Source: Clostridia bacterium (lineage in GTDB: Bacteria > Bacillota > Clostridia > TANB77 > CAG-465). Taken from it: a stretch of DNA of 64,000 bases. The DNA is taken from the NCBI GenBank assembly GCA_029256705.1, contig JAQSXK010000006.1, forward strand, positions 3,021 to 67,020, in the 5' to 3' direction. Both the position numbers and the translations under genes were made by a program. The number at the start of each line of letters is the position of its first letter. Positions within the stretch are counted from its first letter, which is position 1. The notes below the pieces were generated by a model. The model worked only from the letters and a program-made list of their open reading frames with translations, made no database searches and had not been told where the DNA came from. Shown here piece by piece: positions 1,629-46,699 of this stretch.

Positions 1629-1654
1629 TATATAATTAATTATTATGATTTATA

Positions 1655-2749
1655 CTATTCGCCCTTATTTCTTCTTAAGAAAGGAGGAACATCCCAATCT
1701 ACTTTATATTCACTTGATGTAGTTGACATCTTAGTGTTATTATTTACAGCCGCTTTTATAGCGTCCCCAACAATGTTGTCTAATTTCATGTCTGTATTAA
1801 ATGTTTTTTCAAATCCTGTTGCAATTACTGTTATTACTATTTCGTCTGTCATTGTTTCATTAATCACAGCACCAAATATTATATTAGCTTCTGGATCTAC
1901 AGATTTTTGAACAAGTTCTGCTGCTTCATTTATTTCTAGTAATCCTAAATCTTTTCCACCAGTAACATTAATTAAAACTCCACCTGCACCCTCAATTGAC
2001 GTTTCAAGTAAAGGACTGTGTATTGCTTGTCTTGCAGCTTCTTGAGCTCTATGTTCTCCGCTTGCTCTACCTATTCCAATATGTGCAATACCTGCATCCT
2101 GCATTATAGTTTTTACATCAGAAAAATCTAAGTTTACAAGACCTGGAACTGTTATTAAATCTGATATACCTTGTACACCTTGTTTTAATACGTCATCAGC
2201 CATTTTAAATGCATCAGTTATAGAAGTGTTTTTTTCAACAACTTGTAATAGCTTTTCATTTGGTATCGTTATTAAGGTATCAACAGTTTCTTTTAACTCA
2301 CCTATACCACTGTCAGCTTGATTCATTCTTCTTTTTCCTTCAAAAGGAAAAGGTTTTGTTACAACTGCTACTGTTAATATACCCATTTGTTTAGAAACTT
2401 CTGCAACTATAGGAGCTGCACCAGTACCTGTTCCTCCACCCATTCCAGATGTAACAAATACCATATCTGCACCTTTTAAAGCTTCAGCTATTTCAGCTCT
2501 TGATTCTTCTGCACTACATTTTCCTATTTCTGGATTTGCACCTGCACCTAATCCTCTAGTTAACTTTTCACCTATTTGAATTTTCTTTGAAGCTTTAGAA
2601 AGTTCTAGAGCTTGTTTATCTGTATTTATCGAAATAAACTCTACACCTTTAACTCCAGTTTCAATCATACGATTTACACCGCTATTTCCAGCTCCACCTA
2701 CTCCAACTACTTTAATATTGGCCATTCCTGCTTGCATTTGTGATTCCAT
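1655..2749 (-). CDS. ftsZ: Cell division GTPase FtsZ
   Basis: Tubulin-like signature [24 protein letters not shown]. Confidence 0.95.
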
Positions 2750-2772
2750 CTAAAATTCCTCCTTAATAACTA

Positions 2773-4065
2773 TTAATCATCATTTTCATCATCTGTATCT
2801 ATTTTCTTTGTTCTTTTAAATATATTTGTAAGTTTTTCTTTTGTTCCATTTAATATATCTAAAACTTTATCCTTAAATAAAGGTTCAGTTATTATTTCAA
2901 CTTCACTATTTACGTGTTTACTAAGACCTAAACTTGATATATATCTAACCATACCAAATACAGTGGTATGTTGTGGTTTTATGACATTTACTAATTTTGG
3001 TGAGCAAATTCTAACTTGGTTCAATTTTAATATTAACATTGCAAGTTCTTCCGCACCAATTATATTACTAATACCTTGTCCAGTTAAAACCATACATTCT
3101 ATCTTAGAATTTAATTTATTATCTGCTATTATTTTTTTTACTATTTGGTATATTTCTTTTACTCTTGCTTCTATAACTTGTACAATATCACTACATTTTA
3201 CAATATTTTGTCCATCGCTAGTTGAAACAGAATTTAGTTTAACTTCATGATTATTCTTAATCATTGCCTGTATTGCTAAATTATATTGTCTTTTTAATTT
3301 ATCTGCTTCTTCAGAAGATATATCAAAAGTTATAGCAATATCATTTGTTATATGATTACCACCTACTGGTAAAGTATCGTAGAATTGCAATTCAGAATCT
3401 TTATATACTGATATATCAGTATGTCCTGCACCAACATCTAGTAATAAAACTCCTAATTCTTTTTCTTCTGGCATCAATACAATATTAGATGTAGCCAATG
3501 TCTCTAGTATTACGCCATCTAACTTTATATCTGCAAGTTTAAGAGATTTTATCATTCCATCTAAATAATCCCCTTTTGCAATTACAACATCAGCTTTAAC
3601 TTCAAACTTTTTACAAAAAGCGCCTAAAGGTTCTTGCTTATATATTTTATCATTAACTTTATATTCACAAGGTAAAATATCTATAATTTGCTCATCTTTT
3701 TCTAATTTAGTTGCTGCCTGCATTTTATAGAATAAATTATTAATGTCTGTTACGCTTAATCCATCATCTGGTTTTTCAGTTTCAGATTCTATTAACATTC
3801 TTTGTATTCTTACATTCATTCCTTTTGCATTAACATATGCTGAATTAATAGACAGTCCAGATATTTCTTCCGCTGCATTAATAGCATCTTTTATTGATCT
3901 AGCTGCTTCTTGTGAGTCTATTATTTTTCCTTTTTTTACACTTGTATTATTTGACATTCCGTATCCAATTACTTCAATTTCGCTGAATTTGTTTACTTGA
4001 CCTACTAGTGAACAAGTTTTTGAAGCACCTATATCAAGTCCAACAATAATATCTCCAATAGCCAC
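2773..4065 (-). CDS. ftsA: Cell division protein FtsA (actin-like ATPase)
   Basis: 430 aa, DIGASKTCSLVGQ... actin-fold motifs. Lies upstream of ftsZ. Confidence 0.9.
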   Translation of the reverse strand: MAIGDIIVGLDIGASKTCSLVGQVNKFSEIEVIGYGMSNNTSVKKGKIIDSQEAARSIKDAINAAEEISGLSINSAYVNAKGMNVRIQRMLIESETEKPDDGLSVTDINNLFYKMQAATKLEKDEQIIDILPCEYKVNDKIYKQEPLGAFCKKFEVKADVVIAKGDYLDGMIKSLKLADIKLDGVILETLATSNIVLMPEEKELGVLLLDVGAGHTDISVYKDSELQFYDTLPVGGNHITNDIAITFDISSEEADKLKRQYNLAIQAMIKNNHEVKLNSVSTSDGQNIVKCSDIVQVIEARVKEIYQIVKKIIADNKLNSKIECMVLTGQGISNIIGAEELAMLILKLNQVRICSPKLVNVIKPQHTTVFGMVRYISSLGLSKHVNSEVEIITEPLFKDKVLDILNGTKEKLTNIFKRTKKIDTDDENDD

Positions 4066-4175
4066 ATTTACACCTCCAGATTTTAACTATATATATGATA
4101 CTATTTTTTTTATTAAAAATCAAGTGTTTTTGTAAAAATTATGTAATATATATGTAATTTTAATGAAATAGATAG

Positions 4176-4232
4176 AAATTTAGGGTATTTTTATTAACCA
4201 AAAAAATTATTAATAAAAAATACCCTAAATTA
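4176..4232. repeat. 14-bp perfect inverted repeat (TTTAGGGTATTTTT / AAAAATACCCTAAA) separated by ~25 nt. Likely a bidirectional terminator or operator.
   Basis: Seen directly in the ftsA / M50-protease intergenic region. Confidence 0.5.
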
Positions 4233-4245
4233 TAATTATACTAAC

Positions 4246-4845
4246 CTATTCATTACTCTTATTTATCTTTAATACAAATACATATAAAGAAAATATAAGT
4301 AATGAAAAACTATAATATTCTTTTATTTGATATATAGAGATTATCACCAAAATAACTAGAAATATATTACATATATTATCTATGCTTTTATCAATTTTTT
4401 TACCTGGAAAGAAAATGTTTAATATATTTAAAATTATGTTATATCCATCAAGAGGAAATATAGGTAGTAAATTCAGTAATGCTAAAAATATATTTATTTC
4501 CCTTATCATTATATTGTTTTTAAATATATATGCTAATATCAAATTTGAAAATGGTCCTGATAAATAAATTATTATATTTTTAATATACACATATTTACTT
4601 TTTATATATTTATCTTTTTCAAAAGTTGCGCACACTCCAGAGATAGATAATTTAATTTTAATTAATTTTTTATTTAAAATATTTCCTACAAAAATATGCA
4701 TTAACTCATGAAACAATATAAATAAATAACACGCAAAGAAATAATATAAAAATTTAAATGCTGTATTTGATATAATCGAAGTAAAAATTAAAAATATGAA
4801 TATTATTTCTATTTCGACACGACAAAATTTTGTTTTAAGTATCAT
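4246..4845 (-). CDS. Site-2 protease family (M50) membrane metalloprotease, SpoIVFB-like
   Basis: Polytopic membrane protein with the HELMH zinc motif (FHELMHIFVG). Immediately downstream of an M23-domain membrane protein, as in spoIVFA-spoIVFB. Confidence 0.6.
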   Translation of the reverse strand: MILKTKFCRVEIEIIFIFLIFTSIISNTAFKFLYYFFACYLFILFHELMHIFVGNILNKKLIKIKLSISGVCATFEKDKYIKSKYVYIKNIIIYLSGPFSNLILAYIFKNNIMIREINIFLALLNLLPIFPLDGYNIILNILNIFFPGKKIDKSIDNICNIFLVILVIISIYQIKEYYSFSLLIFSLYVFVLKINKSNE

Positions 4846-4848
4846 ATA

Positions 4849-6009
4849 CTAAAATTTTACTAATTCTTCAGGATTTACTGTTCTTCCATCTATTCTGATT
4901 TCAAAATGAAGATGTGGTCCGGTTGACATTCCTGTATTTCCCATAAATCCTATATTTTCATTTTGTTTTACAATATTGTTCAATTTTACACTTATACTAT
5001 CTAGATGTGCATATTTAAATACAACTCCATTTTCTGTTATTTCCAAAAAATTTCCATAATATTTGTTATTATATTCAATTTTTGTAACGATTCCTTCTGT
5101 TGCACTTGAAATTTTTGTTCCTTTTTTATTTGCAATATCTATACCTGTATGATAAGGATCTACTCCTGTAAATACTACTTCCCTTATACCATATCTTGAA
5201 GTAATAACTCCAACTACAGGAGATATTATACTTATATTTTTGGATTTAATAACATTAACGTCATTTTCCATAATACTTATTGAACTTGTTGCCTCTTCTT
5301 TCTTTTCATCTAATGGTTCAGCTCCCCCAATTCCATTTAAAATTTCTTCTTTTTCTTTAGCAGCTATATAATCACTATTTGAGGATATTGATTCTATATT
5401 TTTATTTTCAATTATAACTTCCTTTTTATTACTATCTAAATTTACTAAATCTTTTAATGCTAATTTCAAATCAAACTCTAATATATATGGTTTTAAAAAC
5501 GTGAAATATTTTTCTTTTAGATATTCTTTTATTTTATCAGGAAATATATTACCAATAGCTAAATCCATATTATAGAATCTATATTCAATTTTTTCTAATA
5601 TGTTTGCTCTTGAAAAATCCATATTGTAATGATTATATAATTTTACAACTGTATCATTTTTCTTTATATTATCTAATAAAAATATTTTAGTTACCAAAAC
5701 TGAAAACAAAATAACCGAACAAAAAAATAATTTGATTATCAATCTTGTCTTAAAATTAAATATTATATTATTTTCATTTTTGCTATTTGGTTTACTATAT
5801 CCTTTTTCTTTATATATTCTTTCTTTATTTCCTTTATATGATTCGATATTTAAATCAACATCCCCAACACTATTTAACAAACTTTTTCTTAACCTTCTCG
5901 CAGAAATAACGTTCTCCATAATTTTCCTCCTATTTTGTATATCGCATTTATAATTACTTATTACAATATATATTATTTTCTTAAAATTATGAATAAAAAA
6001 ATATAACAA
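4849..6009 (-). CDS. Membrane-anchored M23/LytM-domain protein (SpoIVFA- or SpoIIQ-like)
   Basis: N-terminal basic cytoplasmic segment, one TM, and a C-terminal M23 domain with intact HxxxD (YHTGIDIA) and HxH (GPHLHFEIR) motifs. Confidence 0.6.
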   Translation of the reverse strand: MLYFFIHNFKKIIYIVISNYKCDIQNRRKIMENVISARRLRKSLLNSVGDVDLNIESYKGNKERIYKEKGYSKPNSKNENNIIFNFKTRLIIKLFFCSVILFSVLVTKIFLLDNIKKNDTVVKLYNHYNMDFSRANILEKIEYRFYNMDLAIGNIFPDKIKEYLKEKYFTFLKPYILEFDLKLALKDLVNLDSNKKEVIIENKNIESISSNSDYIAAKEKEEILNGIGGAEPLDEKKEEATSSISIMENDVNVIKSKNISIISPVVGVITSRYGIREVVFTGVDPYHTGIDIANKKGTKISSATEGIVTKIEYNNKYYGNFLEITENGVVFKYAHLDSISVKLNNIVKQNENIGFMGNTGMSTGPHLHFEIRIDGRTVNPEELVKF

Positions 6010-6036
6010 CTTTAACTAGCTGTTATATTTTTAAAA

Positions 6037-7416
6037 TTAAACAATTTCAGCAGTTATATACCACAAATTGTTTTTTATTATTTTAACTCTTCTTATTTCA
6101 CCAATATCTTTATCTTCCGCCTTGAAAATTACTATTTTATTAGTATTTGTTCTACCAGTATAATAATCTTCATTAGTCTTACTTTTACCTTCTACTAAAA
6201 TATAATATTCTTTACCCAGCATATCTTCGTTAATTTCATATGTAATCTTTTCAAATAACTTTTTTAATCTTGTTATTCTAGAAACTTTTTCTTCATAAGG
6301 TGTTAAATCTTCCATAATAGCAGCTTTTGTTCCAGTCCTTTTAGAATAAATATACATAAATATTTGATCATATTTAACTTCATCAACAACATTAAAGGTT
6401 TCTAAAAAATCTTCCTCAGTTTCTCCAGGAAACCCAACAATTATGTCTGTTGAAAAAGTTACAATATCACATTTTTCTTTCATTTTATAAATTAATTTTA
6501 AATAATCATCTTTAGTATACTTTCTATTCATCAATTTTAATATTCTGTCACTTCCAGATTGTAACGGTAAATGTATTTGTTTAGATATTTTTATTGATTT
6601 TGATATAGTCTCAATTAAATCATTCGTAAAATCTTTTGGGTGTGGTGATACAAAACGTATTATTTCTATTCCATTAATTTTCTCAATCTCTTCAAGAAGT
6701 TTTGCAAATGTATCACCATTATTTAAATCCTTCCCATATGAATTAACATTTTGACCTAATAAAGTAATTTCTTTATATCCATCTTTTGCTAATTTTTTTA
6801 TATCATTTAATATATCTTCTTTTAATCTACTTCTTTCTCTTCCGCGTACATAAGGAACAATACAATATGTACAAAAGTTATTACATCCATATATAATAGT
6901 TACTGTCGCTTTATATTTATCTTCAAAAACTATAGGAACATCTTCTACTACTTGTCCGTCAGATTGAATATACTCATATTTTTTTTCCTTTTTCATTATT
7001 GTGTTATAGAGTTTTTCTGGAAAACTCTGAATTCCATTAGTACCAAAAACAATATCTGTATATGGGTAAGATTCTTTGATTTTTTTAATTATATGTTCTT
7101 GTTGTGCCATACAACCAGCTACAACTAAATATGTATTATTCTCTGTTTTTCTCTTATTTTTTAATGCTCCCAATCTACCAAACAATGTATTTTCGGCATT
7201 TTCTCTTACGGTACACGTATTAAATAATATAAGATTTGATTCTATCTCGCTTTTCCCCTTAATAAAACCCATAGATTCTAAAATACCCGCATATTTATTA
7301 GAATCATTTTCATTCATTGCACATCCCATAGTATCTATAAAATATGTTAGTCCATTATTTGTTACGTAATCTTTAAGTTTTTCTATATAATTATTTTTAA
7401 ATTTCAATAAATTCAC
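6037..7416 (-). CDS. miaB: Radical-SAM methylthiotransferase (MiaB/RimO family) with a TRAM domain
   Basis: MTTase N-terminal Cys triad plus the radical SAM motif CNNFCTYC. 459 aa. Confidence 0.75.
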   Translation of the reverse strand: MNLLKFKNNYIEKLKDYVTNNGLTYFIDTMGCAMNENDSNKYAGILESMGFIKGKSEIESNLILFNTCTVRENAENTLFGRLGALKNKRKTENNTYLVVAGCMAQQEHIIKKIKESYPYTDIVFGTNGIQSFPEKLYNTIMKKEKKYEYIQSDGQVVEDVPIVFEDKYKATVTIIYGCNNFCTYCIVPYVRGRERSRLKEDILNDIKKLAKDGYKEITLLGQNVNSYGKDLNNGDTFAKLLEEIEKINGIEIIRFVSPHPKDFTNDLIETISKSIKISKQIHLPLQSGSDRILKLMNRKYTKDDYLKLIYKMKEKCDIVTFSTDIIVGFPGETEEDFLETFNVVDEVKYDQIFMYIYSKRTGTKAAIMEDLTPYEEKVSRITRLKKLFEKITYEINEDMLGKEYYILVEGKSKTNEDYYTGRTNTNKIVIFKAEDKDIGEIRRVKIIKNNLWYITAEIV

Positions 7417-7482
7417 CTACTTAAAAAAATATACCCTGCAATTTAATTCAGAGTATATCACATATATAATAGAATATTTTGA

Positions 7483-8040
7483 TTATGCTCTTTCCATGTA
7501 TTGGGAAGTTCTAGTATCTATTCTAATTACATTTCCTATTTCTATAAATATTGGAACATTAAATACTGCTCCTGTTTCTACAGTTGCTGGTTTAGTAGTA
7601 CCTGTTGATGTACTTCCTTTTATTCCAGGTTCTGTATATGTTACTTCAAGTTCAACAAATGTAGGAGGTTCAATACCAAATATATTGCCTTTGTATGATA
7701 ATACTTTAAAATTCATATTATCTTTTAAGAAAGGTAATGTATCTTCTATTTGTTCTTTAGAAAGTTCAACTTGCTCAAATGATGTTGTATCCATAAATGT
7801 ATATCTTTCACCATCATTATATAGATATTGCATTTCTTGTATTGTTATTTGAGCTTCTTCAACTTTTTCAGTTGGATTAAAAGTTTTTTCTAATGTATTA
7901 CCAGTTATAACATTTTTTAATCTTGTCCTTACAAAAGCTGCTCCTTTACCTGGTTTTACATGTTGAAAATCAACAACTCTATATACTGATGAATCCATCT
8001 CAAATGTTACACCATTTCTAAATTCTCCTGCTAAAATCAT
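7483..8040 (-). CDS. efp: Elongation factor P
   Basis: [43 protein letters not shown] matches EF-P. Confidence 0.95.
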
Positions 8041-34821: not shown

Positions 34822-34826
34822 CACTA

Positions 34827-35276
34827 TTACTTTAAAAGTTTGTTTAATTCTTTTTTAAATTCGTTTATATCTTTAAATTGTCTATATACTGATGCAAATC
34901 TTACATAAGCAATTTCATCAATTTCCCTTAATTTTTGGATAACAATGTCACCTATTTTAGAAGCTTCAATTTCTTTTTCCATAGAATTATTTAATTCCAT
35001 TTCGATTTCATCAACAGTTCTTTCTATAACATTTAATGGGACTGGTCTCTTTTCACACGCTCTAAGCATACCATTTATTATTTTGTTTCTGTCAAATTGC
35101 TGCCTTATACCATTTTTCTTTATTACAACTATAGGTGTATATTCAATTTTTTCATAAGTAGTAAATCTATTTCCACATCCTAAACACTCACGTCTTCTTC
35201 TGGTTGAATTTCCATCTTCTACAGTTCTAGAATCTACAACTTTGCTCTCTTCGTTTCCACACTTTAAACATTTCAT
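34827..35276 (-). CDS. nrdR: Transcriptional repressor NrdR
   Basis: [42 protein letters not shown] zinc ribbon plus ATP-cone. Confidence 0.95.
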
Positions 35277-35285
35277 AAAAACACC

Positions 35286-35801
35286 TCACTTAAAATTATA
35301 TATAACAGTATTATTATTTCTTAAACTTTCTTTGCAATCTATTGATCTTTGGTTTGTACTTCCTCTATAAGCTAAAACGTCACTTTTAAAATTAATATCA
35401 AATTTACCGTCAATAAGAATATCTGTATTATTTAGTAATGAATTAAAGCCATTATTTTCATTTGAATTTTTTAATAAAAATTCAAATTCATATCCTGTAT
35501 ATACAATCACATCTAGTTTTTTTCTATCTAATTTTGATAGTAGTTGTGATACTTGGTTAGCTTGCATAAATGGCTCTCCACCACTTACAGTAATACCTTT
35601 TAAGAGAGGATTTTTAGTAATATCGGTTATAATATCATCTATAGCTATAAGATTTCCACAATTAAACGAATGAGTTTGAGGATTGTGACATCCATCACAT
35701 TTATGTGGACAACCTTGTGTGAATAATACGTATCTTATTCCTGGTCCATCTACAATTGACTCTTTAACTATTCCAGATAACCTAATTTTTTCATTGTCCA
35801 T
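35286..35801 (-). CDS. nrdG: Anaerobic ribonucleotide reductase activating protein
   Basis: Radical-SAM CPHKCDGC. Confidence 0.9.
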   Translation of the reverse strand: MDNEKIRLSGIVKESIVDGPGIRYVLFTQGCPHKCDGCHNPQTHSFNCGNLIAIDDIITDITKNPLLKGITVSGGEPFMQANQVSQLLSKLDRKKLDVIVYTGYEFEFLLKNSNENNGFNSLLNNTDILIDGKFDINFKSDVLAYRGSTNQRSIDCKESLRNNNTVIYNFK

Positions 35802-35829
35802 AAAAATACCTCCGTATTAAAATTTTATA

Positions 35830-38151: not shown

Positions 38152-38187
38152 AAAAATACCACCCCTTGTATTACATAAAATGTAAAA

Positions 38188-38203
38188 ACACTATATATTG
38201 TGT
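38188..38203. promoter_or_regulatory. NrdR box upstream of nrdD
   Basis: ACACTATATATTGTGT matches the acaCwAtATaTwGtgt consensus at 16/16 positions. A weaker palindrome TTACATAAAATGTAA lies at 38171-38185. Confidence 0.75.
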
Positions 38204-38383
38204 TTATGAAGTAATTATAACATAAGTAAAATTTATTGTCAATGTATTTTAATAAGATTTTTAAAATGTAATATTTATGACATATTGAACTAATTTTCTA
38301 CATAAATTTATGTAAATAAAATAGTATATAAAGTAAATCAATTGCATATAATTTTAATATGAAAAAAGTTATAAAACTCATTT

Positions 38384-38393
38384 TTTGTCGAAA
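38384..38393 (+). promoter_or_regulatory. Spo0A (0A) box TTTGTCGAAA upstream of the Spo0E-like gene promoter
   Basis: Exact match to the TTTGTCGAAA consensus, 28 bp upstream of -35 TTGACA (38422-27). The -10 is TATTAT (38445-50). Confidence 0.5.
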
Positions 38394-38470
38394 CTTGCGA
38401 CCGAAAAAATGACAGCAGATATTGACAACTGTGTCATAAAATGGTATTATATTTGCGGAAGGGTGATTTG

Positions 38471-38623
38471 ATGGTACAAGAAAAAATTATTGAATTGAAG
38501 AAAAAATTAGATGATCAGATAATGAATAATGATTTATATGAGAAAATATATAAAACTAGTGTGGACATTGATAAGTTAATAATAGAATATTACAAACAAT
38601 ATGGACTAAGTGGGGTTAAATAG
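38471..38623 (+). CDS. Spo0E-family aspartyl-phosphate phosphatase-like small protein
   Basis: MVQEKIIELKKKLDDQIMNNDLYEKIYKTSVDIDKLIIEYYKQ matches the Spo0E-like helical hairpin and SxxxDxLI..YY pattern. GGAAGGGTGA RBS. Confidence 0.6.
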   Translation: MVQEKIIELKKKLDDQIMNNDLYEKIYKTSVDIDKLIIEYYKQYGLSGVK

Positions 38624-39013
38624 TCGTTTGAAAATATCCATATTTTTAAATGTGTCCAATGAGATATCAAAAAGTAGTAGTCCAAGAATTATAAGTAATA
38701 AATAATCTCGTTTATTTTCCATGAACAAGAATATTACGATACCTACTATTATTATGTCATCGATATTAATTGATAGTCCAAATAGAGAAAGTCTATCTCT
38801 ATTTGGTTTAGATGGATCACTCACAAATTCTTGAGACTCTTTATTATCATCAAAAGAGATTTGACTCATGATTTCGTTAGTAGCTTCTTTTTTTGAGTCT
38901 GTTTCAATAATAGGATGAACGGGAGCAGGTCTAGTGTACATATTGTTGTATGGTATGTAATTATTATAATAGTTAGTATTATGTAACATTATTACCACTC
39001 CCCTTATCATCAA
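38606..39013 (-). CDS. Hypothetical protein with a C-terminal TM (possibly sporulation-related)
   Basis: 135-aa ORF, N/Y-rich N-terminus. Last gene of a three-gene minus-strand cluster. Confidence 0.4.
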   Translation of the reverse strand: MMIRGVVIMLHNTNYYNNYIPYNNMYTRPAPVHPIIETDSKKEATNEIMSQISFDDNKESQEFVSDPSKPNRDRLSLFGLSINIDDIIIVGIVIFLFMENKRDYLLLIILGLLLFDISLDTFKNMDIFKRLFNPT

Positions 39014-39419
39014 ATATACCTAACGCACTTCCAATAGTTAAGTATGTTAAATACTCATTTATTTTCTCTTGCCTTGATTTTCTAAGAAAAGGTTTTAGAG
39101 AAATAAGTAAATTTTTTCTAGGATCATCTTTGCTCATTGAAGACAATATTTTCTGAATTTTCATCATTGTATTTACATCAAATCCAGATTCATTACTTCC
39201 AAATAATCCTGCTAAATTTAAATTATTTAGTACATCGGATATGTTAAAATTGTTGTTTTCTTTTTTACTTTCTTTTTTTTGCTCATTTTTAAAAAAATTT
39301 TCTTGCATGTATTCTATATTATTTTTTTCTTCTTTTGGACTTGGCGGCTTTTCTTCACTTAATTTGGATTGAATTCCCTGTATCAATTCAAATAAATAAT
39401 TATTATCTTCTTTATCCAT
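38979..39419 (-). CDS. Hypothetical K/E/N-rich protein
   Basis: 146-aa ORF overlapping the next gene by 35 nt. Confidence 0.4.
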   Translation of the reverse strand: MDKEDNNYLFELIQGIQSKLSEEKPPSPKEEKNNIEYMQENFFKNEQKKESKKENNNFNISDVLNNLNLAGLFGSNESGFDVNTMMKIQKILSSMSKDDPRKNLLISLKPFLRKSRQEKINEYLTYLTIGSALGIFDDKGSGNNVT

Positions 39420-39430
39420 CTTTAATTCAC

Positions 39431-39616
39431 TTATTTTCCGTCTTGTGAGTTGTTATTCACATTTTTGTTTAACATTCCAACTAAATTATTTAAATCTTCT
39501 TTAGACATGCCGCTTACCATTTTTCCAACTTGTTCAATTTTACTTCTATCAACCCCAGATAGTAGTTCTAATAGTTTAGAATTTAACATATTATTCATGT
39601 TACTCATATACATCAA
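39431..39616 (-). CDS. Hypothetical small protein
   Basis: 61-aa ORF. 11-nt gap to the next ORF, so a frameshifted single gene is possible. Confidence 0.35.
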   Translation of the reverse strand: MMYMSNMNNMLNSKLLELLSGVDRSKIEQVGKMVSGMSKEDLNNLVGMLNKNVNNNSQDGK

Positions 39617-39828
39617 CCCCCTTAAATAACTTATATATTGTAATTATATGCACCTTATTAAAAAGTGTGATTGAAATGCGAGGTGAAAGATGCTTAATTT
39701 TAAAAAAAATAATTTTATAACTAAAAATATATATGCGGATATATCTATATTATATGATATTGTTGATGTTAATGATAATGTGATATAATAATTTTAATTA
39801 AAGTAAAATATATGAAAGGTGGATAATA

Positions 39829-41955
39829 ATGAAGATTGATTTGCACTGTCATACAATGAAAGTAAAAAGTGGTGATTCGGTAAAAAGAAACATAGATGCA
39901 GACACATTTGTAAGGAAAATAAATAATGCTGAAGTTAAAATTGTTGCTATAACAAATCATAATTTATTTGATATTAATCAATATAATAATTTCACACAAA
40001 AGGCAAATAATGAATTTCAAATATGGCCAGGTATTGAACTTGACATTAATGATATAGAGAATAAACGCGGACATCTAATTGTAATAGCAAATCCAGCGAT
40101 TGTTGAAGAATTTCATAAAACAACATTGGAACTTATAAATGGTATACATCCAGATACATTTAGTGCTGACATAGAAAAGGTTATAGAAAAATTTAATAGT
40201 AAAGATGTAATTTACATTGCACATTCAGGTGGAAAGAAACAATCGCTTACTGATGAGACAATTAAAAAAATAGATTTTATAATTAAAGAAAAATATAGGT
40301 TGTTTAAGGAACCTAGTAACTTTAAAACTTTAAGTATAATGTCTAATGTAGGATTTAAAGTTATCATAGGAAGTGATGTTTCAGATTGGGATAAGTACAA
40401 TGATTTTAAATTTGCGGAACTAAAATTAAAAATAGACAGTTTTGAACAGTTTATTCTATTATCTAAAAAAGATGTGGGAACAGTTAAGACACTATTAGAA
40501 AAAAAACAAAAGCAAGATCTGCAAATAAAAGTTAGTATAGATAATAATAAAAAGGTTGATATGAGTATACCTATTTATAATGATGTTAATATATTGTTTG
40601 GTGCTAAGGGTACAGGTAAGACAGCAATATTATTGGGCTTAAATGATAAGTATAATAATGATGGTGGAGATATTTCTTTTTATGCTGCTAAAGATTCGGA
40701 TAGCATTATAGATAATATGTTAAAAGAAAATAAGGGAGAAAGAAGTCTAAAAAAGTTAAATTTAGAATATTTGAAAACATGTTTTGAAGATATAAAAAAA
40801 TGGAGAGAGACAACCTTTACTGAAATAAAGCAATATATAAATTATTGTGAAACAAAAAATTTTAATACAAATAAGAATAATTTAAAAATAACAATTATGA
40901 GAAAATTAAACAATATAACTCCTAAGAAATATAGGGCTGAAAAAGAAGTATTAAGTATAATAGAAGATATAATTAATAATTACAAAAAAATAGGATTAAA
41001 AGAAATCTTAAAATCAAAAGAGTTAATAGAACTAACAAATATTAATAATAAAATATTTAAAAGTATTGAAGAAAAATTAAAAAAAGAATATATAGAATAT
41101 CTTTCAAAAGAATTTACAAATAATTGTATAACAAAAATCAAAGAAAGAGCCGACATCTACACAACTTCAAAGTCTTTGCCAAATAGTACTGGCTTTTTAG
41201 ATTTTGCAAAAAATAGGCTTGTTTTAAAGATAAATATAGATAGAATATTAGTTGGTTTTAATGAGGCAAAAATTGAAGAAAAAACTAAAGTTGGAGAGTT
41301 AGATAATAATAAATGTATATATTTAAAGACAATATATAAAGCTTATTCTAAAGGAGACAATGGATTTAAATATGGAAAACACAATAAGAATTTGAAACCT
41401 ATATTTGAAATTATTAGTAAAATAAAAGAAAACTATTTTGAAAGCATAAACGATGATATGATGAAATTGATTGCATTAATAATTGATGAAAATATTGATT
41501 TTGAAGATTTTGTAGGAATTAAAAAAAGTTTTGTTAATCAAGATGATGCAGAATATACACCTTCAGATGGAGAAAAAATAATGCTGGTATTACATAAAGC
41601 TTTAATGGCGAATAAGCAAATATACATATTAGATGAACCAGAAAGAAGTTTAGGCAATTCTTTTATTAATGATGTGGTTCTTCCAAGAATAAATGATATT
41701 GCAAGAGAAGGAAAGACGGTTATAATAGCTACACATAATGCAAATATAGCTGTAAGAAGTTTACCTTTTGTTTCAATACTAAAAGATTATAATAATGGAA
41801 AATATAATACTTATATTGGAAATCCATTTACGAACAAGTTAATTAATACTGAAAATGAAATAGATGTAAAGGACTGGAAAGATGAGAGTATGAGAATATT
41901 AGAAGGTGGAAAAGAAGCTTTCAATGAAAGAGAGGATATTTATGAATCAAGATAA
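39829..41955 (+). CDS. PHP phosphoesterase domain fused to an ABC/OLD-type (AAA_15/21-like) ATPase. Candidate defence effector.
   Basis: N-terminal PHP motifs DLHCHT, ITNHN, GIELD, IAHSGG. Walker A ILFGAKGTGKTAIL (~aa 259). ~300-aa helical insert. Signature-like YTPSDGEK. Walker B QIYILDEPERSLG. H-loop IIATHNANI. AAAGGTGG RBS. Confidence 0.7.
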   Translation: MKIDLHCHTMKVKSGDSVKRNIDADTFVRKINNAEVKIVAITNHNLFDINQYNNFTQKANNEFQIWPGIELDINDIENKRGHLIVIANPAIVEEFHKTTLELINGIHPDTFSADIEKVIEKFNSKDVIYIAHSGGKKQSLTDETIKKIDFIIKEKYRLFKEPSNFKTLSIMSNVGFKVIIGSDVSDWDKYNDFKFAELKLKIDSFEQFILLSKKDVGTVKTLLEKKQKQDLQIKVSIDNNKKVDMSIPIYNDVNILFGAKGTGKTAILLGLNDKYNNDGGDISFYAAKDSDSIIDNMLKENKGERSLKKLNLEYLKTCFEDIKKWRETTFTEIKQYINYCETKNFNTNKNNLKITIMRKLNNITPKKYRAEKEVLSIIEDIINNYKKIGLKEILKSKELIELTNINNKIFKSIEEKLKKEYIEYLSKEFTNNCITKIKERADIYTTSKSLPNSTGFLDFAKNRLVLKINIDRILVGFNEAKIEEKTKVGELDNNKCIYLKTIYKAYSKGDNGFKYGKHNKNLKPIFEIISKIKENYFESINDDMMKLIALIIDENIDFEDFVGIKKSFVNQDDAEYTPSDGEKIMLVLHKALMANKQIYILDEPERSLGNSFINDVVLPRINDIAREGKTVIIATHNANIAVRSLPFVSILKDYNNGKYNTYIGNPFTNKLINTENEIDVKDWKDESMRILEGGKEAFNEREDIYESR

Positions 41956-42253
41956 TATTGTAAAGGTTATTCTAAAGAAAAACTTAAAAAATCAGGATGT
42001 ATTAGAATTTAATTTTTTTAAAATTCAGCATATAATTTTAACAAGCGAAAATGCAAATAATTTAAAAAATTTTTTTGAAATACTATTATTAGAATTATCT
42101 AAAAAACCATTTATTTTAGAACTGGTAATTGAAAAAGATTATGAAACCGTTTTGTATAAGGATGTTGCTATGGCATATATAGATTCATTAAATGATGAGA
42201 TAATTGAATTAATTGACTCAGAAGAATGGAAAGAAGTTTTTAAGAGTAATTAA
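41942..42253 (+). CDS. 103-aa acidic hypothetical protein, translationally coupled to the PHP-ATPase gene
   Basis: ATG at 41942 overlaps the upstream gene end by 14 nt. AGAGAGGA RBS. Sequence MNQDNIVKVILKKNLKNQDVLEF...IDSEEWKEVFKSN. Confidence 0.55.
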   Translation: MNQDNIVKVILKKNLKNQDVLEFNFFKIQHIILTSENANNLKNFFEILLLELSKKPFILELVIEKDYETVLYKDVAMAYIDSLNDEIIELIDSEEWKEVFKSN

Positions 42254-42493
42254 TATTGTGTAATTTAATATTAAGCTTATTTAATTAATTAAAAATATAT
42301 CTAACAAACAAAAGACAAGCGTAATGAATAATGATGTAATGAAAGCAGCAAAAATTATTTTAAATATGACGGAGTTTGTAAATAATAAAAAAGATAAACT
42401 TTCACTAACACAACTAGATGTATGTAAAAGTATTTAATTTAAATCACTTTCTAGGCTAAATTATCATAAGATATTCTAGGAGGTGATTATTTA

Positions 42494-43351
42494 ATGGATA
42501 CATTTAAAATAGGTGATGTAGTTGCAAGAAAATCATACAACATGGATATATTATTTAAGATAACAGGTATTAATAAAGAAATAATAGAACTAGCTGGTCT
42601 TACGGTTAGAATTGTGGCGGATTCACCTGTAACAGATTTAGTACATATATTAGAATCCGAAGTTAAAGATAGAATGAAAAAAATAGATGATTCAAGAAAA
42701 ATAAGAATGAATAGATGTTACAATAATATAAATAAAAAATTTAATATTAGAGATACAACATCAGAAAATCCAAATGTTTATGTAAAAGAGAAAATTTTTA
42801 AAAGACCAGGAGTAATATTACATATAGATGGCGATTCAGAGTATACTGAAAAATGTAGAGAAAATTATAAGAGAATGGGTCTTACTGCATATGTATATAA
42901 TATAAGTGAAGAAGAACAGTATAAACAGATATACTCATTGCTTCAAAAAATAAGACCGAATATTTTGATACTTACAGGTCATGATGCTTTCTTAAGAAAA
43001 AGAAATGATATATATAACATAAATAACTATAAAAATTCAAAATACTTCATACAGGGTGTTTTGGAAGCAAGAAGATATGAACATAATTTAGATAATTTAG
43101 TTATATTTGCAGGAGCTTGCCAAAGCTATTATGAAGCGATAATATCTGCTGGCGCAAATTTTGCTTCGGCTCCAAAAAGAGTTTTAATAGATATGTTAGA
43201 TCCACTTATAGTTGCTGAATCAATAGCATATACACCAGTTGATAAATTTATTCCTCTTGCTAGTATAATTTCAAATACAAGGGAGGGAATTGATGGAATT
43301 GGGGGGGTACAAACTAGAGGGCAATATAGGGAAGGTATGCCAGGTATTTAA
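42494..43351 (+). CDS. yabG: Sporulation-specific protease YabG
   Basis: MDTFKIGDVVARKSYNMDILFKITGI... with a conserved C-terminal peptidase U57 region. Confidence 0.85.
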   Translation: MDTFKIGDVVARKSYNMDILFKITGINKEIIELAGLTVRIVADSPVTDLVHILESEVKDRMKKIDDSRKIRMNRCYNNINKKFNIRDTTSENPNVYVKEKIFKRPGVILHIDGDSEYTEKCRENYKRMGLTAYVYNISEEEQYKQIYSLLQKIRPNILILTGHDAFLRKRNDIYNINNYKNSKYFIQGVLEARRYEHNLDNLVIFAGACQSYYEAIISAGANFASAPKRVLIDMLDPLIVAESIAYTPVDKFIPLASIISNTREGIDGIGGVQTRGQYREGMPGI

Positions 43352-43453
43352 AATACTAATAAATATTAATTGATTGTAAAATTATGAAGAATATAAAATA
43401 AAAAAATTATATATAAATCGGGTCATATGCCACAAAATGGCACTGTTGCGCTA

Positions 43454-43520
43454 TTTCGACAAAACTAGACTGTAAAATTTTAGCAGAAGACTTGATTTCT
43501 TATATTTAATTGTGTATAAT
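43454..43520 (+). promoter_or_regulatory. spo0A promoter region: a 0A box (TTTGTCGAAA on the minus strand) plus a sigma-A promoter
   Basis: Reverse-complement TTTGTCGAAA at 43454-63. TTGATT at 43492-97, 17-nt spacer ending in TG, TATAAT at 43515-20. Confidence 0.55.
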
Positions 43521-43557
43521 TGTAATGTACTAAGAGATAAGGTATGGGGGTAATAAA

Positions 43558-44370
43558 ATGATTCAAAAGAAAAAGGTTATGTTGCTGGATGATAATAGGG
43601 AGTTCGTAATGCTTCTTAAGGAGTATATAAATCTCCAAGAAGATATGGAAGTAGTTACTTATGCGTATGATGGGACAAATGCTATGAAACTTATGAAAGA
43701 AACTAATCCAGACGTGCTACTATTAGATATTATAATGCCTGAAAAAGACGGGTTGACAGTTTTAGAAGAAATGTCTAAAGAAAATGAGCATAAAATGCCA
43801 TTAGTAATAGTAATGTCTTCAATTGGCCAAGAAAGAATAACGCAAAAGGCTATATCACTAGGAGCAACATATTATGTTGTAAAACCATTTGATATGAAAA
43901 GTTTAACTGAAAGAGTTAGAGATTTAATGTCGCCAGATAATTCAACAACAACTATCAATAGTAGATTTACATCTAAAGATAATGTTTTGGATACTAGAAG
44001 ACTTAATACTAGTCTAGAAGTAAGAGTAACAAATGCTATACATGACGTTGGGGTTCCAGCACATATAAAAGGATATCAATATGTTAGAGAAGCAATAATT
44101 ATGACAGTAAAAAATGAAGATGTTATAAACGCTGTTACGAAGACATTGTATCCAAACCTATCACATATGTTTGATACAACACCATCTAGAGTAGAAAGAG
44201 CCATAAGACATGCTATTGAAGTGGCGTGGAATAGGGGACAAATTGAGGTTCACGATAAGATATTTGGATATACAGTAAATTCAAATAAAGGAAAACCAAC
44301 AAATTCTGAGTTTATAGCAATGATAGCAGATAAATTGAGATTAGAAGAAAAAGCTGCTGCTAATATGTAA
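43558..44370 (+). CDS. spo0A: Sporulation master regulator Spo0A
   Basis: Receiver domain [10 protein letters not shown]...[14 protein letters not shown] and a C-terminal 0A DNA-binding domain ...[10 protein letters not shown]...[18 protein letters not shown]. Confidence 0.95.
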
Positions 44371-44435
44371 ATTTAAAGAATGCTTTGTGTTATTTTAACA
44401 TAAGGTATTTTTTTATTTTGTGAATAAACAAAAAA

Positions 44436-44462
44436 ACGTAGCAATAACTACGTTTTTATTTA
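44436..44462. terminator. Bidirectional terminator between spo0A and the convergent membrane-protein gene
   Basis: AAAACGTAG-caataa-CTACGTTTT. Confidence 0.6.
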
Positions 44463-44466
44463 TATG

Positions 44467-45030
44467 TTATTTTTTAAATAAATGCAAAAATTTACTAACC
44501 AGTGCAACAATTTTAGTTGTATTATGTTTAGCAACCGTTTTGCCTATTGCTTTACCACCAACTGTTAATGAAGCAACTAATGCACTAATAAGAAACTGCA
44601 TATTAAAATTTAACCCAAAATCATTAGTAATTTTAACCGCAATTAAAGCACTTATTGCACCACTTAAAACGCCAGATATATCACCTACAACGTCTGCACA
44701 AAAATTAGATACTTTATGTGAGTTACGTATAAGCTTAATTGCTGTCTTAGATCCTCTTAATTTTTTACTAGCTTTGGCATGAAATTCTTCTTCATTTGCT
44801 AGTGTAACAGCAACACCAATTATATCAAAGAAAATACCAACAAATATAACAATTATTAATACTAATATTGCTACAAGAATAGGTAAATCTTTTATAGATT
44901 CACTTGAAATATAAGAAAAAAATAAAGATGATATAAAAGTTAAGACAAAGATAGAAATCAACCATTTAAGTGTAGACTCGTCTGACTTTACTTTTTTATA
45001 TCTTTTTTGTTTTAAATCTTTTGTTTCCAT
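44467..45030 (-). CDS. Four-TM small membrane protein. Possible OapA (OLE-associated protein A).
   Basis: 187 aa (~21 kDa) with basic termini and 4 predicted TM helices. Immediately downstream of, and on the same strand as, a long structured non-coding region. Confidence 0.45.
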   Translation of the reverse strand: METKDLKQKRYKKVKSDESTLKWLISIFVLTFISSLFFSYISSESIKDLPILVAILVLIIVIFVGIFFDIIGVAVTLANEEEFHAKASKKLRGSKTAIKLIRNSHKVSNFCADVVGDISGVLSGAISALIAVKITNDFGLNFNMQFLISALVASLTVGGKAIGKTVAKHNTTKIVALVSKFLHLFKK

Positions 45031-45784
45031 TTTGTATTATTTACAACCCCTATTTAAAAATTATTTAGATGGTAGAAAATTAGGTAAATTTTACGGTTTA
45101 GGTCTAGTAGAATTTCTCTATTCTTTACTAAATATTACTATTTAGTCGTTTCCATTTAAAAAGAATATTCTTTGGTTACCCAAAAGACAACTAGATCACC
45201 ACTTAAATCCGTACCTTAATCCCTAAAAACCTTCGCTTTTAATAAAGCAAACATTCTAGAAGTTTTCCTAAAAAATATACTGCTACCTATTATTAGTCTT
45301 TTTCGCAATAATAATTTCATTATCATAAGTTAAAAATTATGGCCAATAATCAAATAACTCTTAAAATAAATCCCAATAATATCACTCAAGACAGGCTACA
45401 CTATGCATTGTGTCTTGGCACTTAACATAGGTTACACTTAATAATTTTGAACATTAAGTCTCCACGAAATTAGGGAATAAGCTGTATGCCATTACAACGT
45501 ACCCTAATTTCTTTACTCCCTGAAACCACGCAGAACTGGGCGTTCTGCGCATTAACAAGGAACTTCAACGATGTGCCTTTTAGTGGATTTTTAGCCCCAC
45601 CCTCACAACAGACAGTATAACTAGAATAATGCACCATCAATAATATATTATATCATAAAATTTGCTTAAATGCAAATTTGTATCAAAAACACTTAAAGTT
45701 TTTTCATGTGTGTTACATTATATAATATTATATTTTATGTGTTTTATACACAAAAAACGCACATAATATTAATGAATTTTATAT
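45031..45784 (-). ncRNA. Large ORF-free, locally GC-enriched structured region. Candidate OLE-like RNA.
   Basis: 750 bp with no ORF longer than 58 aa and clearly more G+C than the flanks. Strong hairpins include CGCAGAAC-tgggc-GTTCTGCG and AAATTAGGG...CCCTAATTT. No tmRNA, RNase P or SRP signature motifs were found. Confidence 0.4.
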
Positions 45785-46360
45785 TTATTTTTTCCACAAT
45801 CCTGTATTGTTTTTTATTGCTTCTGATGCTAGTTCCTTAAAAATTTTAGAGTATTTAATATCTGGTGGGTAGGTAAATACATTTGCATATCCATTTTTAA
45901 GTAGTAGTCCATTAAACATTTTAGACTCAATTTCCTCTTTAGAAATTTCCACTGGAGTTTCTAACCAAACATAACAAAGCAGACGTCCAAACGTATCTGT
46001 TTTACTAACATCCTTTTCAAGAAAAATATTCTTATTCAGCAATATTGATTTAGTATACTGTGTTGATTCCTTTCCGTAGAATTCAACTTTAGATGTATAT
46101 TCTGGACAATCTATCCCTATAAGTCTAACTTTATATTTTTTGGAATCAATAAGAACCTCTATTGTATCCCCATCAACAATTCTAGAGACATAAGCTTTCA
46201 AGGTATTATTTAAAATAGTAGATTCATCAAGTTTTTTTGGCTTATTAGAAACTGTTTGAGAATTATAAGTGATAAATTTGTCTATATTTTCAATATATTG
46301 ACTCGTATAAATTACAACAATTAATGATAATCCAATAATAAATTTATTTCTTCTTTTCAT
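45785..46360 (-). CDS. Secreted thermonuclease (SNase-like)
   Basis: Signal/TM followed by RLIGIDCPE...YGKEST SNase motifs. Confidence 0.75.
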   Translation of the reverse strand: MKRRNKFIIGLSLIVVIYTSQYIENIDKFITYNSQTVSNKPKKLDESTILNNTLKAYVSRIVDGDTIEVLIDSKKYKVRLIGIDCPEYTSKVEFYGKESTQYTKSILLNKNIFLEKDVSKTDTFGRLLCYVWLETPVEISKEEIESKMFNGLLLKNGYANVFTYPPDIKYSKIFKELASEAIKNNTGLWKK

Positions 46361-46699
46361 ATTAAGTTCACCTATAATATTATATCATTTAAATAAATAT
46401 TTTCAATTTAAATAAACTGATATTTAACTATTATTATGTTACAAATTAAGATTGTCTTTGTTTTAATATGATTGTTTGTTGTTAAAAATAAAAACTAAAT
46501 TTTATTATTTTCAACAATGACAGCGAAAAGATTAAAAACAATTTACATAAAATATTTACATAATTATGAAAAAAGGTTGACATAATGATTGGAGATGTGT
46601 TATAATAAGATATAAGTTAGTAACGACAGAATATGACATAAGGTGTTTGTAGGGGGTTGTTTACTAAATATCTATAAATATTAAGAGGAGGAAATTTAA

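Follow-up and report, generated by a model that had tools for sequence, protein, structure and literature searches.

A two-gene islet pairing a PHP phosphoesterase-ABC ATPase fusion with a small acidic protein, a candidate immunity module in a Clostridia bacterium

What is a PHP phosphoesterase fused to an ABC ATPase, followed by a small acidic protein, doing between the sporulation and housekeeping genes of a Clostridia bacterium? The 64,000-nucleotide stretch of DNA analysed here (the window; contig JAQSXK010000006.1) carries such a pair, and a reading made earlier from the letters alone (the sequence-only reading) had proposed it as a candidate new anti-phage defence module. The features on which the following analysis draws are listed by window position and strand.

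39761..42424 (no strand assigned), acquired islet, a 2,664-bp segment in the window, with 46 bp at the same site in the near-identical genome L015.
39763..39789 (+), promoter-like element, with a -35-like TTGATG at 39763-39768 and an extended -10, TGaTATAAT, at 39781-39789.
39815..39822 (+), ribosome-binding site for the large gene, read from the sequence as AAAGGTGG, 6 nt before the ATG.
39829..41955 (+), large gene, an ORF of 708 aa for a fusion of a PHP phosphoesterase and an SMC-like split ABC ATPase.
39829..40503 (+), PHP domain, aa 1 to ~225, with putative two-metal ligands H6, H8, E70, H82, H132 and D183.
40504..40728 (+), N-lobe of the ABC ATPase, with Walker A G258-AKGTGK264-T (K264 100% conserved; AriA alignment, profile positions 233-295).
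40729..41508 (+), helical insert of ~260-310 aa from AF2 secondary structure, a coiled-coil or helical arm between the lobes.
41509..41763 (+), C-lobe of the ABC ATPase, with S579-D-G581-E, Walker B D602-E603 and H-loop H636 (Pfam ABC_tran, E 4.4e-7).
41764..41952 (+), conserved C-terminal module, GNPF...W...ES..LEGG..AF..R..IYE (invariant columns in alignment A2).
41930..41936 (+), ribosome-binding site for the partner gene (GAGAGGA), within the 3' end of the large gene and 5 nt before the partner ATG.
41942..42253 (+), partner gene, 103 aa, with its ATG 14 nt inside the large gene.

Both ORFs and both ribosome-binding sites were found as the sequence-only reading had given them, and all the motifs it quoted were located, namely HCHT (6-9), NHN (43-45), ELD (70-72) and AHSGG (131-135) in the PHP part and GAKGTGKT (258-265), SDGEK (579-583), ILDEPE (600-605) and ATHN (634-637) in the ATPase part. 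Homologues of the large protein fell into 321 clusters at 50% identity (E ≤ 1e-30), and at this identity level its own clade comprises at least 100 full-length clusters. The MKIDLHCHT start is kept in homologues, and among 103 representatives with 23-41% identity, H6, H8, H44, E70, D183, K264, S579, G581, D602, E603 and H636 were 100% conserved, with H82 and H132 at 86-88%.

The borders of the islet were obtained by blastn of window positions 31001-51000 against L015, in which window 31881-39760 aligned with L015 1-7884 (95.5% identity) and window 42425-51000 with L015 7931-16498 (94.8% identity). The span first assigned to the unit, 39617..42493, is the entire intergenic span, and the acquired segment within it is 39761..42424. 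The pair is missing from this ~95%-identical genome, which confirms that it is an accessory islet, and neither the pair nor the partner was detected by tblastn in 49 related YabG loci, one of which (L024) gave one short partial match to the large protein (27%). In another relative, the islet site is occupied by different cargo. No target-site duplication, integrase or transposase was seen at the borders. On the flanks lie NrdD, three small ORFs that matched nothing in Pfam, YabG peptidase and Spo0A, that is, the housekeeping and sporulation surroundings already described for the pair, and no defence genes adjoin it in the window. The pair had also been credited with its own promoter. Promoter-like hexamers do lie within the islet, ~40 nt 5' of the large-gene ATG, and TGaTATAAT is a perfect extended -10; however, TTGATG is spaced 15 nt from the -10, and promoter-like matches in this 24% GC DNA were indistinguishable from chance (28 found, 27 expected in shuffled sequence), so that the element is best called a putative promoter. 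The same promoter and terminator scan found no terminator-like site.

The Pfam PHP model did not match the large protein even at E ≤ 1, ABC_tran being the only Pfam model matched, and the fold was therefore examined by structure prediction. The AF2 model of the large protein (pLDDT 86.3) showed a PHP fold. The sequence of the domain has the complete set of putative metal ligands (HxH, E, H, H, D) and an invariant N43-H44-N45 motif. The PHP assignment of the sequence-only reading is thus carried by the structure model and ligand conservation, not by a Pfam match. Structural likeness was found to EndoQ, RNase AM, the PHP domain of Pol III, RecN and UvrA. EndoQ (5zb8) and the RNase AM / TM0559-type enzymes have the same six-residue two-metal pattern with nearly identical spacing, the ligands agreeing with His8/His10/Glu76/His84/His139/Asp193 of EndoQ, an equivalence drawn from order and spacing, not from superposition. 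The window protein differs from these enzymes in lacking the Zn-finger and C-terminal domain of EndoQ and the final D-x-H histidine (it has GSDV), and in the joining of its PHP domain to an ATPase. No sequence similarity between these enzymes and the window PHP domain was detected by phmmer, and a phmmer search of PDB sequences with the PHP domain alone returned nothing meaningful. Phosphatase activity and action on RNA are known from PHP domains as well. The domain is likely the nuclease effector, with a two-metal site of the EndoQ / RNase AM type.

The ATPase part carries all the marks of the SMC/Rad50/RecN-like (OLD/AriA-class) ATPases, with GxKGTGK(T/S), SxGE, DE(P)E, H636 and a helical split, and its best PDB sequence match was AriA of PARIS (E 1.4e-9), which bears out the OLD/ABC-type engine proposed before. 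The top Foldseek matches were JetC of Wadjet, SMC heads including Smc2, RecN and SbcC, with TM-scores to JetC, SMC, RecN and SbcC that are low (≤ 0.22 over the query). The long helices of the insert span aa 366-388, 396-444 and 456-479 in the AF2 model, the longest being ~49 residues. A split ABC ATPase with an inserted helical region, and the same ATPase-plus-nuclease logic, are found in PARIS (AriA/AriB), OLD, Gabija GajA, Septu PtuA/PtuB and AbiL, and relatives of the window protein weakly matched AriA, PtuA, GajA, HEC-02A and mad8 in PADLOC. The nuclease candidate in the window, however, is an N-terminal PHP domain instead of a Toprim or HNH domain, and the second gene encodes a 12-kDa non-enzymatic protein instead of an effector. 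Neither protein matched Toprim in Pfam, PADLOC or NCBIfam, which separates the pair from OLD, Gabija GajA and PARIS AriB with their Toprim nucleases.

The partner had been described as a translationally coupled acidic protein with no recognisable domain, and it shares 14 nt with the large gene, has a pI of 4.66 and a net charge of -7, and matched nothing in Pfam, PADLOC or NCBIfam. Its predicted fold is beta-beta-beta-alpha-beta-alpha, and it has no conserved catalytic residues or acidic catalytic set. A word-indexed homology search with the partner only found just the partner itself, and a profile of seven partners derived from genomic context was needed to recover the family. The net charge was negative in 28 of the 29 sequences of the resulting partner alignment. 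The partner is a fast-evolving orphan protein that is always paired with the large gene. Origin as a domain fused inside Ppl/TrlF was considered and rejected (hhalign probability 0.13%).

The pair is not entirely new, as the combination of a PHP-ABC protein and a coupled partner of ~100 aa already exists as PDC-M49. PDC-M49 is a two-gene phage-defence candidate of PADLOC with the cassettes FAM_00021>>FAM_01695 and FAM_00021>>FAM_02682, listed as untested (Payne et al. 2024, bioRxiv 10.1101/2024.01.29.577857), and the PDC systems as a whole are expressly candidates awaiting validation. The large protein matched the PDC-M49A profiles PDLC04680 (E 2.4e-33, 113.6 bits, aa 2-706 on profile positions 3-670 of 674) and PDLC04678 (E 3.9e-20), although the score is weak (114 bits against 660-957 for bona fide members) and identity to PDC-M49A is only 24%. 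The two share a PHP domain at the N-terminus, a split ABC ATPase, a conserved C-terminal module and a length of ~670-710 aa, and hhalign against bona fide PDC-M49A gave 99.7% end-to-end over 638 columns. In PDC-M49, as in the window, an ORF of ~100 aa follows the large gene on the same strand and overlaps its stop codon, but an unrelated family of the same size takes the place of the window partner. PDC-M49B HMMs did not match the window partner or 11 of its homologues from Clostridia, Staphylococcus and Vibrionaceae at E ≤ 10, whereas the partners at three control loci (L069, L070 and L072) matched with E values of 1e-15 to 1e-36. Profile-profile alignment of the two partner families gave a probability of 1.2%, no evidence of homology, and the window partner resembles neither PDC-M49B nor any known protein. 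Judged by these HMM results, the two-gene model of PADLOC probably misses the window locus. PDC-M49 is mentioned in no paper of the literature searched, and no experimental report of defence by the clade or by PDC-M49 was found in the searchable literature.

The closest analogue named in the sequence-only reading, the single-gene Ppl system, proved to be a real homologue. The TrlF-family AAA-like ATPase (NCBIfam NF045780) is the counterpart of Ppl (Gao et al. 2020). Ppl is anti-phage by experiment and is countered by gp130 of phage Bas63 (PMC11482910), and was still called uncharacterised in 2024 in the papers searchable here; for the Photorhabdus trlF operon, the link made was with temperature restriction instead of phage, and that work yielded no trlF mutants (PMC7554251). 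A TrlF-family protein matched both the Ppl HMM (E 2e-41) and the PDC-M49A HMM, and hhalign linked the window family to TrlF with a probability of 98.5%, the aligned part being the PHP and Walker A region. The TrlF HMM matched the window protein at aa 304-705 (E 1.5e-24), aligning up to its last positions, and hhalign of the large-protein family against L069 also extended to the C-terminus; the C-terminal module is thus common to PDC-M49A and TrlF, end-to-end. The score for TrlF_fam_ATP (NF045780) was 86.8 bits, below the 350-bit cut-off, and the Ppl HMM (PDLC02208) did not match the window protein at E ≤ 1. Ppl/TrlF proteins have the same fusion of PHP and ABC-type ATPase, but are encoded by a single gene of ~870-945 aa whose middle region is much longer and which has no small partner coupled to it, unlike the 708-aa window protein with its obligate partner. 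Listeria TrlF (867 aa), for example, has no overlapping small ORF, and no segment of TrlF resembles the window partner. By profile comparison, the window large protein is a sister of Ppl/TrlF, and what is new is the clade, its pair being missed by the Ppl and PDC-M49B HMMs.

As the sequence-only reading had suggested checking, co-occurrence of the two genes was examined, and they were together and co-directional in 15 of 15 independent neighbourhoods, partner identity following large-protein identity. The pair occurs in Clostridia, Staphylococcus plasmids, Vibrionaceae and prophage contigs, a distribution that is patchy across phyla. Plasmids of Clostridium, Photobacterium and S. aureus carry homologues, as do IMG/VR viral contigs, in one case 2 kb from a terminase gene, and homologues also have integrase/resolvase or conjugative surroundings; one partner sequence was present on 510 contigs (Staphylococcus plasmids). 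Recognised or candidate defence genes lay nearby in 8 of the 15 neighbourhoods. The defence genes seen around relatives were AbiLi/AbiLii, type I-B CRISPR-Cas and an SLFN-like helicase, and further Vsr-Dcm-Eco47II with a NucC-like PD-DExK, DpnII RM with Mrr and Hachiman, PDC-S02 and PDC-S41, BsuBI/PstI RM, and an Eco57I-like methylase with ResIII and GmrSD, DUF4365 and a McrB-like AAA_5. The typical defence-islet setting claimed for the pair therefore holds for relatives, not for the window itself.

Taken together, the fold, the conserved catalytic centres, the obligate pairing, the strain-specific presence, the mobility, the homology to defence families and the defence-rich neighbourhoods make it fairly probable that the pair is an immunity module of two genes, self-contained and gained by horizontal transfer, directed most likely against phages or other invading DNA. 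In such a module, on the model of OLD, Gabija, PARIS, Septu, Wadjet and SbcCD, two heads would dimerise on ATP binding, with the Walker A and signature sites at their interface, and a cue made during infection, either nucleic acid or protein, would be sensed by the head and arm. The cue would license the PHP site to cut nucleic acid, so that the invader is destroyed or the infection aborted. Nuclease activity, its gating by ATP, the role of the partner and defence itself are here put forward as inferences from these features. The partner, made in a fixed ratio through translational coupling, is most likely a regulator that binds the large protein; it could be an inhibitor (an antitoxin or a nucleic-acid mimic), which infection would displace or remove, or alternatively an adaptor that senses the trigger.

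The small size, acidity and tight coupling of the partner and its lack of catalytic residues would also suit a toxin-antitoxin or addiction module that stabilises its carrier element, with the PHP-ATPase as toxin and the partner as antitoxin. The pair moves as a minimal two-gene unit, on plasmids it adjoins Fst toxin-antitoxin genes and IS257, and in the sister clade the partner is swapped for an unrelated protein of equal size, for which reason a neutralising binder fits better than an enzyme. We nevertheless consider this reading unlikely, as an antitoxin encoded downstream of an 82-kDa toxin would be unusual in a type II system, the SMC-like ATP-dependent machinery exceeds known toxins in elaboration, and the pair is linked to RM, CRISPR and Abi clusters, not solely to plasmid maintenance regions; moreover, toxin-antitoxin and abortive-infection behaviour can coexist.

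The JetC, SMC-head, RecN and SbcC matches raise another alternative, namely surveillance of plasmids or DNA topology of the Wadjet/SbcCD type, in which the head and arm would sense the shape or ends of DNA and the PHP domain would cleave plasmids or hairpins and not mainly phage DNA. The layout of a metal-dependent nuclease with an ABC head and helical arm indeed parallels Mre11-Rad50/SbcCD and JetC-JetD. However, the window protein is a single chain whose insert is far shorter than SMC or Rad50 arms, it lacks a zinc hook as well as kleisin or KITE partners, its PHP domain belongs to a different superfamily from the nucleases SbcD, Mre11 and JetD, and the pair is accessory, unlike the core SbcCD-type gene. 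Given also the low TM-scores and a clade that is itself often plasmid-borne, we regard this alternative as quite improbable.

A housekeeping repair or RNA-processing factor (PolX-, RecF/RecN-, SbcCD-, EndoQ- or RNase AM-like), to which the structural likenesses of the large protein and the housekeeping and sporulation neighbours in the window would point, is very unlikely and was rejected because of the presence/absence data, the pair being absent from L015 and the 49 related loci with other cargo at the site in a relative, while its patchy spread on plasmids and prophages and its constant fast-evolving orphan partner also argue against it.

Within the immunity reading that we prefer, a more specific proposal can be made tentatively. 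The window clade might be a mechanistically distinct type of defence in which the exchangeable acidic partner plugs an SMC-like PHP nuclease as a nucleic-acid mimic or decoy, until infection cues displace or deplete the partner and an ATP-dependent PHP endonuclease is armed. In this picture, homologous large subunits would be paired with either of two unrelated partner families, and the cues could be DNA-mimic anti-restriction proteins of phages, host shut-off or a specific phage protein. If true, this would provide the first mechanistic model for the poorly understood Ppl / PDC-M49 superfamily. Human-gut Clostridia, S. aureus plasmids and vibrios would then hold a new sensor-effector logic that seems to escape existing annotation models.

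Systems combining a PHP nuclease and an ABC ATPase are among the least understood defence architectures, and the locus defines a large sister clade among them in gut Clostridia, Staphylococcus plasmids and Vibrionaceae. To judge from their HMMs, current defence finders probably miss the pair, in which Pfam sees an ABC_tran fragment only. The presence/absence polymorphism offers a natural isogenic comparison, with a 2.7-kb fragment that holds its own promoter-like element, and the two unrelated acidic partners on homologous large subunits would give a lever on how such machines are silenced and triggered.

L015 (MAG OH_SBrB_108) is ~95% identical in DNA to the window over 16.5 kb, covering window 31881-39760 and then 42425-51000. 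As homology breaks at 39760 and resumes at 42425, the islet carrying the PHP-ATPase gene and its small partner gene (39761..42424) is a 2,664-bp insertion in place of 46 bp. In the L015 empty site (~7886..7904), just upstream of yabG, the replaced 46 bp contain a near-perfect palindrome, AATTCACATTGTGTGAATT, which is gone in the window strain and might serve as an operator or as a site of recombination. At the same site (equivalent to window ~39787..42291), L016 (related MAG, JAQUGQ010000007.1) carries a different 6.1-kb cargo (1647..7798) between a 61-aa ORF and yabG, encoding a HerA/TraG-like ATPase, a ParA-like ATPase and CpaF-like T2SSE plus T2SSF; this makes the site a variable hotspot. 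GTDB species representatives were scanned with the adjacent YabG protein, and the pair was present in 0 of the 49 related loci obtained. The absence from L015 and from these loci bears out the accessory status that the sequence-only reading had proposed. No integrase, transposase or target-site duplication was found at the islet borders, and at 0.21-0.26 the islet is barely lower in GC than its flanks. The features of the islet, taken from the sequence and, for the two genes, an ORF scan, are as follows.

39781-39789, perfect extended -10 (TGaTATAAT) within a promoter-like element
39829..41955, + strand, large gene, 708 aa
41942..42253, + strand, partner gene, 103 aa, from the conserved start (MNQ...) with ATG at 41942

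The genes overlap by 14 nt, and each is preceded by a Shine-Dalgarno-like sequence (AAAGGTGG, spacing 6 nt, for the large gene; GAGAGGA, spacing 5 nt, for the partner gene), in agreement with the coupling claimed earlier. The claimed promoter fared less well: the extended -10 is present, but promoter-like matches are no commoner than in shuffled sequence (28 vs 27 expected). The scan of the islet region for promoters and terminators found no terminator-like site. The sporulation and housekeeping surroundings were correctly recognised, the pair being flanked by NrdD, three small ORFs without Pfam matches, YabG peptidase and Spo0A. Upstream of the small-ORF cluster, a 60-aa ORF (38441..38623, +) resembles by eye a Spo0E-like aspartyl-phosphate phosphatase (...SVDIDKLIIEYY...). 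Further along lie a full-length OLE (Ornate Large Extremophilic) RNA (45053..45653, -; RF01071, 357 bits, E 2e-101) and, directly after it on the same strand, a gene for a 187-aa membrane protein (44467..45030, -) with a weak CNNM transmembrane match, which is plausibly an OapA-type OLE-associated protein.

The public JGI starts of both identical proteins appear to be wrong. The identical large protein (P0001) is called as 699 aa, starting 9 codons late (window 39829..39855) and so losing the HxH motif, and is curiously named 'predicted ATPase/ribosomal protein L7Ae-like RNA K-turn-binding protein'; homologue alignments favour the longer 708-aa start. The identical partner is called as 109 aa (window 41924..41941 added).

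All motifs quoted in the sequence-only reading were located at their described places in the ORF translation and homologue alignment. Its PHP-ATPase assignment gained support from an AlphaFold2 model (27 input homologues, mean pLDDT 86.3), the EndoQ ligand pattern and a C-terminal ABC_tran segment (E 4.4e-7), the only Pfam match, but the Pfam check for a PHP domain returned nothing. NCBIfam gave a weak match to CehA/McbA PHP-type metallohydrolase (aa 2-134) and a TrlF-family match over aa 304-705 that, at 86.8 bits, stays under the 350-bit cut-off. The two-metal ligands of EndoQ are His8, His10, Glu76, His84, His139 and Asp193, and cleavage is weakened or lost when they are mutated (PMC5961232); H6, H8, E70, H82, H132 and D183 of the large-protein family follow the same order and spacing. 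For conservation, clusters at 50% identity were sampled through 103 full-length representatives, which share 23-41% identity with the window large protein. H6, H8, H44, E70, D183, K264, S579, G581, D602, E603 and H636 are invariant in all 103, and H82 and H132 are conserved in 86-88%; this pattern suggests that both catalytic centres work and are under selection. Foldseek matched the model best to the heads of JetC, Smc2/cohesin, RecN, retron-IA PtuA and SbcC, with TM-scores of at most 0.22 over the query, and the whole architecture is therefore absent from solved structures. PARIS AriA ranked first among PDB sequences in profile search (E 1.4e-9), its alignment taking in the Walker A region and the signature/Walker B/H-loop region. 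The large protein thus combines a PHP fold, predicted to be EndoQ-like and conserved in its ligands, with an ABC head of SMC-like type whose helical arm is short and whose ATP-site residues are intact.

The partner is acidic, as described earlier (pI 4.66, net charge -7), and 28 of the 29 sequences in the partner alignment likewise carry a net negative charge. Its reported lack of a recognisable domain held against the Pfam, NCBIfam and PADLOC models, none of which matched. A word-indexed search with the window partner alone found only itself, and a profile search gave 236 clusters, all hypothetical or unnamed at source. A ~100-aa ORF overlaps the large-gene stop codon at every locus with a large-protein homologue, and the identities at which these ORFs align with one another (54, 54, 38, 35, 24 and 19%) roughly follow those of the large protein (57, 52, 40, 40, 35.5 and 31.5%). 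The partner HMM also matches directly downstream of the large gene in four viral-contig loci; conversely, when partner homologues in Vibrio and a Bacilli MAG served as the starting point, a gene for a 714- or 707-aa protein was found overlapping them from upstream. The co-occurrence check proposed with the earlier reading found both genes in 15/15 independent neighbourhoods; in a sixteenth (L068), the contig end truncates the partner, leaving its N-terminus visible. Taken together, the data on the partner indicate a coupled, co-evolving, non-catalytic, acidic protein. Two over-long gene calls for partner homologues (P0311 and P0314, 159-165 aa) carry a precomputed Pfam match, PF27117, which is absent from the results of the Pfam scans run here and might belong to a newly added model for the partner or for the C-terminus of the large protein.

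The proposal of a candidate new module overstates novelty, because the architecture is an already catalogued, untested candidate, PDC-M49: the PADLOC PDC-M49A HMMs match the window large protein full length, if weakly (E 2.4e-33). Payne et al. (2024, bioRxiv 10.1101/2024.01.29.577857) present PDC systems as single- and multi-gene candidates from 'guilt by embedding', explicitly untested, and list the PDC-M49 cassettes FAM_00021>>FAM_01695 and FAM_00021>>FAM_02682; a later study left PDC systems out as unvalidated. Three more distant viral-contig loci (L069, L070 and L072) are bona fide PDC-M49, with large proteins of 670-680 aa (PDC-M49A, E 1e-199 to 1e-288) and overlapping ORFs of 97-105 aa (PDC-M49B, E 1e-15 to 1e-36; 7669..7983 in L069). 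The window large protein aligns end-to-end with these PDC-M49A proteins (hhalign 99.7%, 24% identity), whereas the partners share position and size but not detectable sequence: the window partner family gave no HMM match to PDC-M49B at E<=10 and a profile-profile probability of 1.2% against PDC-M49B-type partners. The two families may have no common origin, or may have diverged too far for kinship to be recognised.

The suggested kinship to Ppl was upheld at family level. The PADLOC Ppl HMM does not match the window large protein; a Listeria TrlF-family protein matches both Ppl (E 2e-41) and PDC-M49A (E 4e-21), so TrlF corresponds to Ppl, and Ppl is a sister of the superfamily of the window pair. 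TrlF aligns with the window large-protein family over the PHP and Walker A region (hhalign 98.5%) but, unlike the window pair, lacks a coupled partner. The partner as a domain fused inside TrlF was ruled out, no partner-like segment being found there. TrlF is named from the temperature-restriction operon of Photorhabdus (PMC7554251); Ppl is a validated single-gene system of still unknown mechanism, countered by Bas63 gp130 (PMC11482910).

The pair family is mobile and lies in defence neighbourhoods. Across 1.84 billion cluster representatives, a full HMMER scan gave 321 large-protein clusters at E<=1e-30; the scores of the best 150 are all 284 bits or higher, and the length of full-length members is a uniform ~700-745 aa. 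Named sources include [Ruminococcus] torques, Blautia, Clostridium sp. CF011, C. gasigenes, S. aureus, S. epidermidis, Vibrio, Aliivibrio and Photobacterium. Copies occur on plasmids, on IMG/VR viral contigs (in one case with a terminase large subunit 2 kb away), within an integrase/resolvase islet and beside TraC-like genes. Neighbours in individual relatives include AbiLi/AbiLii, type I-B CRISPR-Cas and an SLFN-like helicase; DpnII-type RM, Mrr and Hachiman; and BsuBI/PstI RM. Others are the PADLOC candidates PDC-S02 and PDC-S41, Eco57I-like methylase with ResIII and GmrSD, DUF4365, and McrB-like AAA_5. Judged from these genes, this is a classic defence-gene signature. A five-gene cassette of Vsr, Dcm-type methylase, Eco47II endonuclease, DUF6602 NucC-like PD-DExK and the PHP-ATPase pair recurs in two distinct chromosomal contexts (L007 2277..8422 and L080 3272..9422), one adjoining Mob_Pre, TnpV and VapE genes, which suggests that the pair travels with an RM system as a composite defence island.

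We therefore lean towards a defence module. By analogy with OLD, Gabija, PARIS, Septu, Wadjet and SbcCD, ATP-driven head dimerisation would sense or clamp a nucleic-acid or protein cue and thereby license the PHP site to cleave, with the partner regulating the large protein as a plug/antitoxin or as a sensor. A generic binding or regulatory role of the partner is favoured because in the sister clade its slot is taken by an apparently unrelated protein of equal size. An addiction or toxin-antitoxin module, to which strict pairing and an antitoxin-like partner would also be suited, is unlikely beside the defence-gene company of the relatives. Slightly less likely again is Wadjet-like anti-plasmid surveillance; copies of the pair are themselves found on plasmids. 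A housekeeping repair factor is scarcely credible for genes absent from all 49 YabG loci. What is new beside the catalogued candidate is a large divergent clade whose partner, by sequence search, finds no match among the Pfam, NCBIfam or PADLOC models, and with it a natural, clean-cut polymorphism in the presence or absence of the pair.
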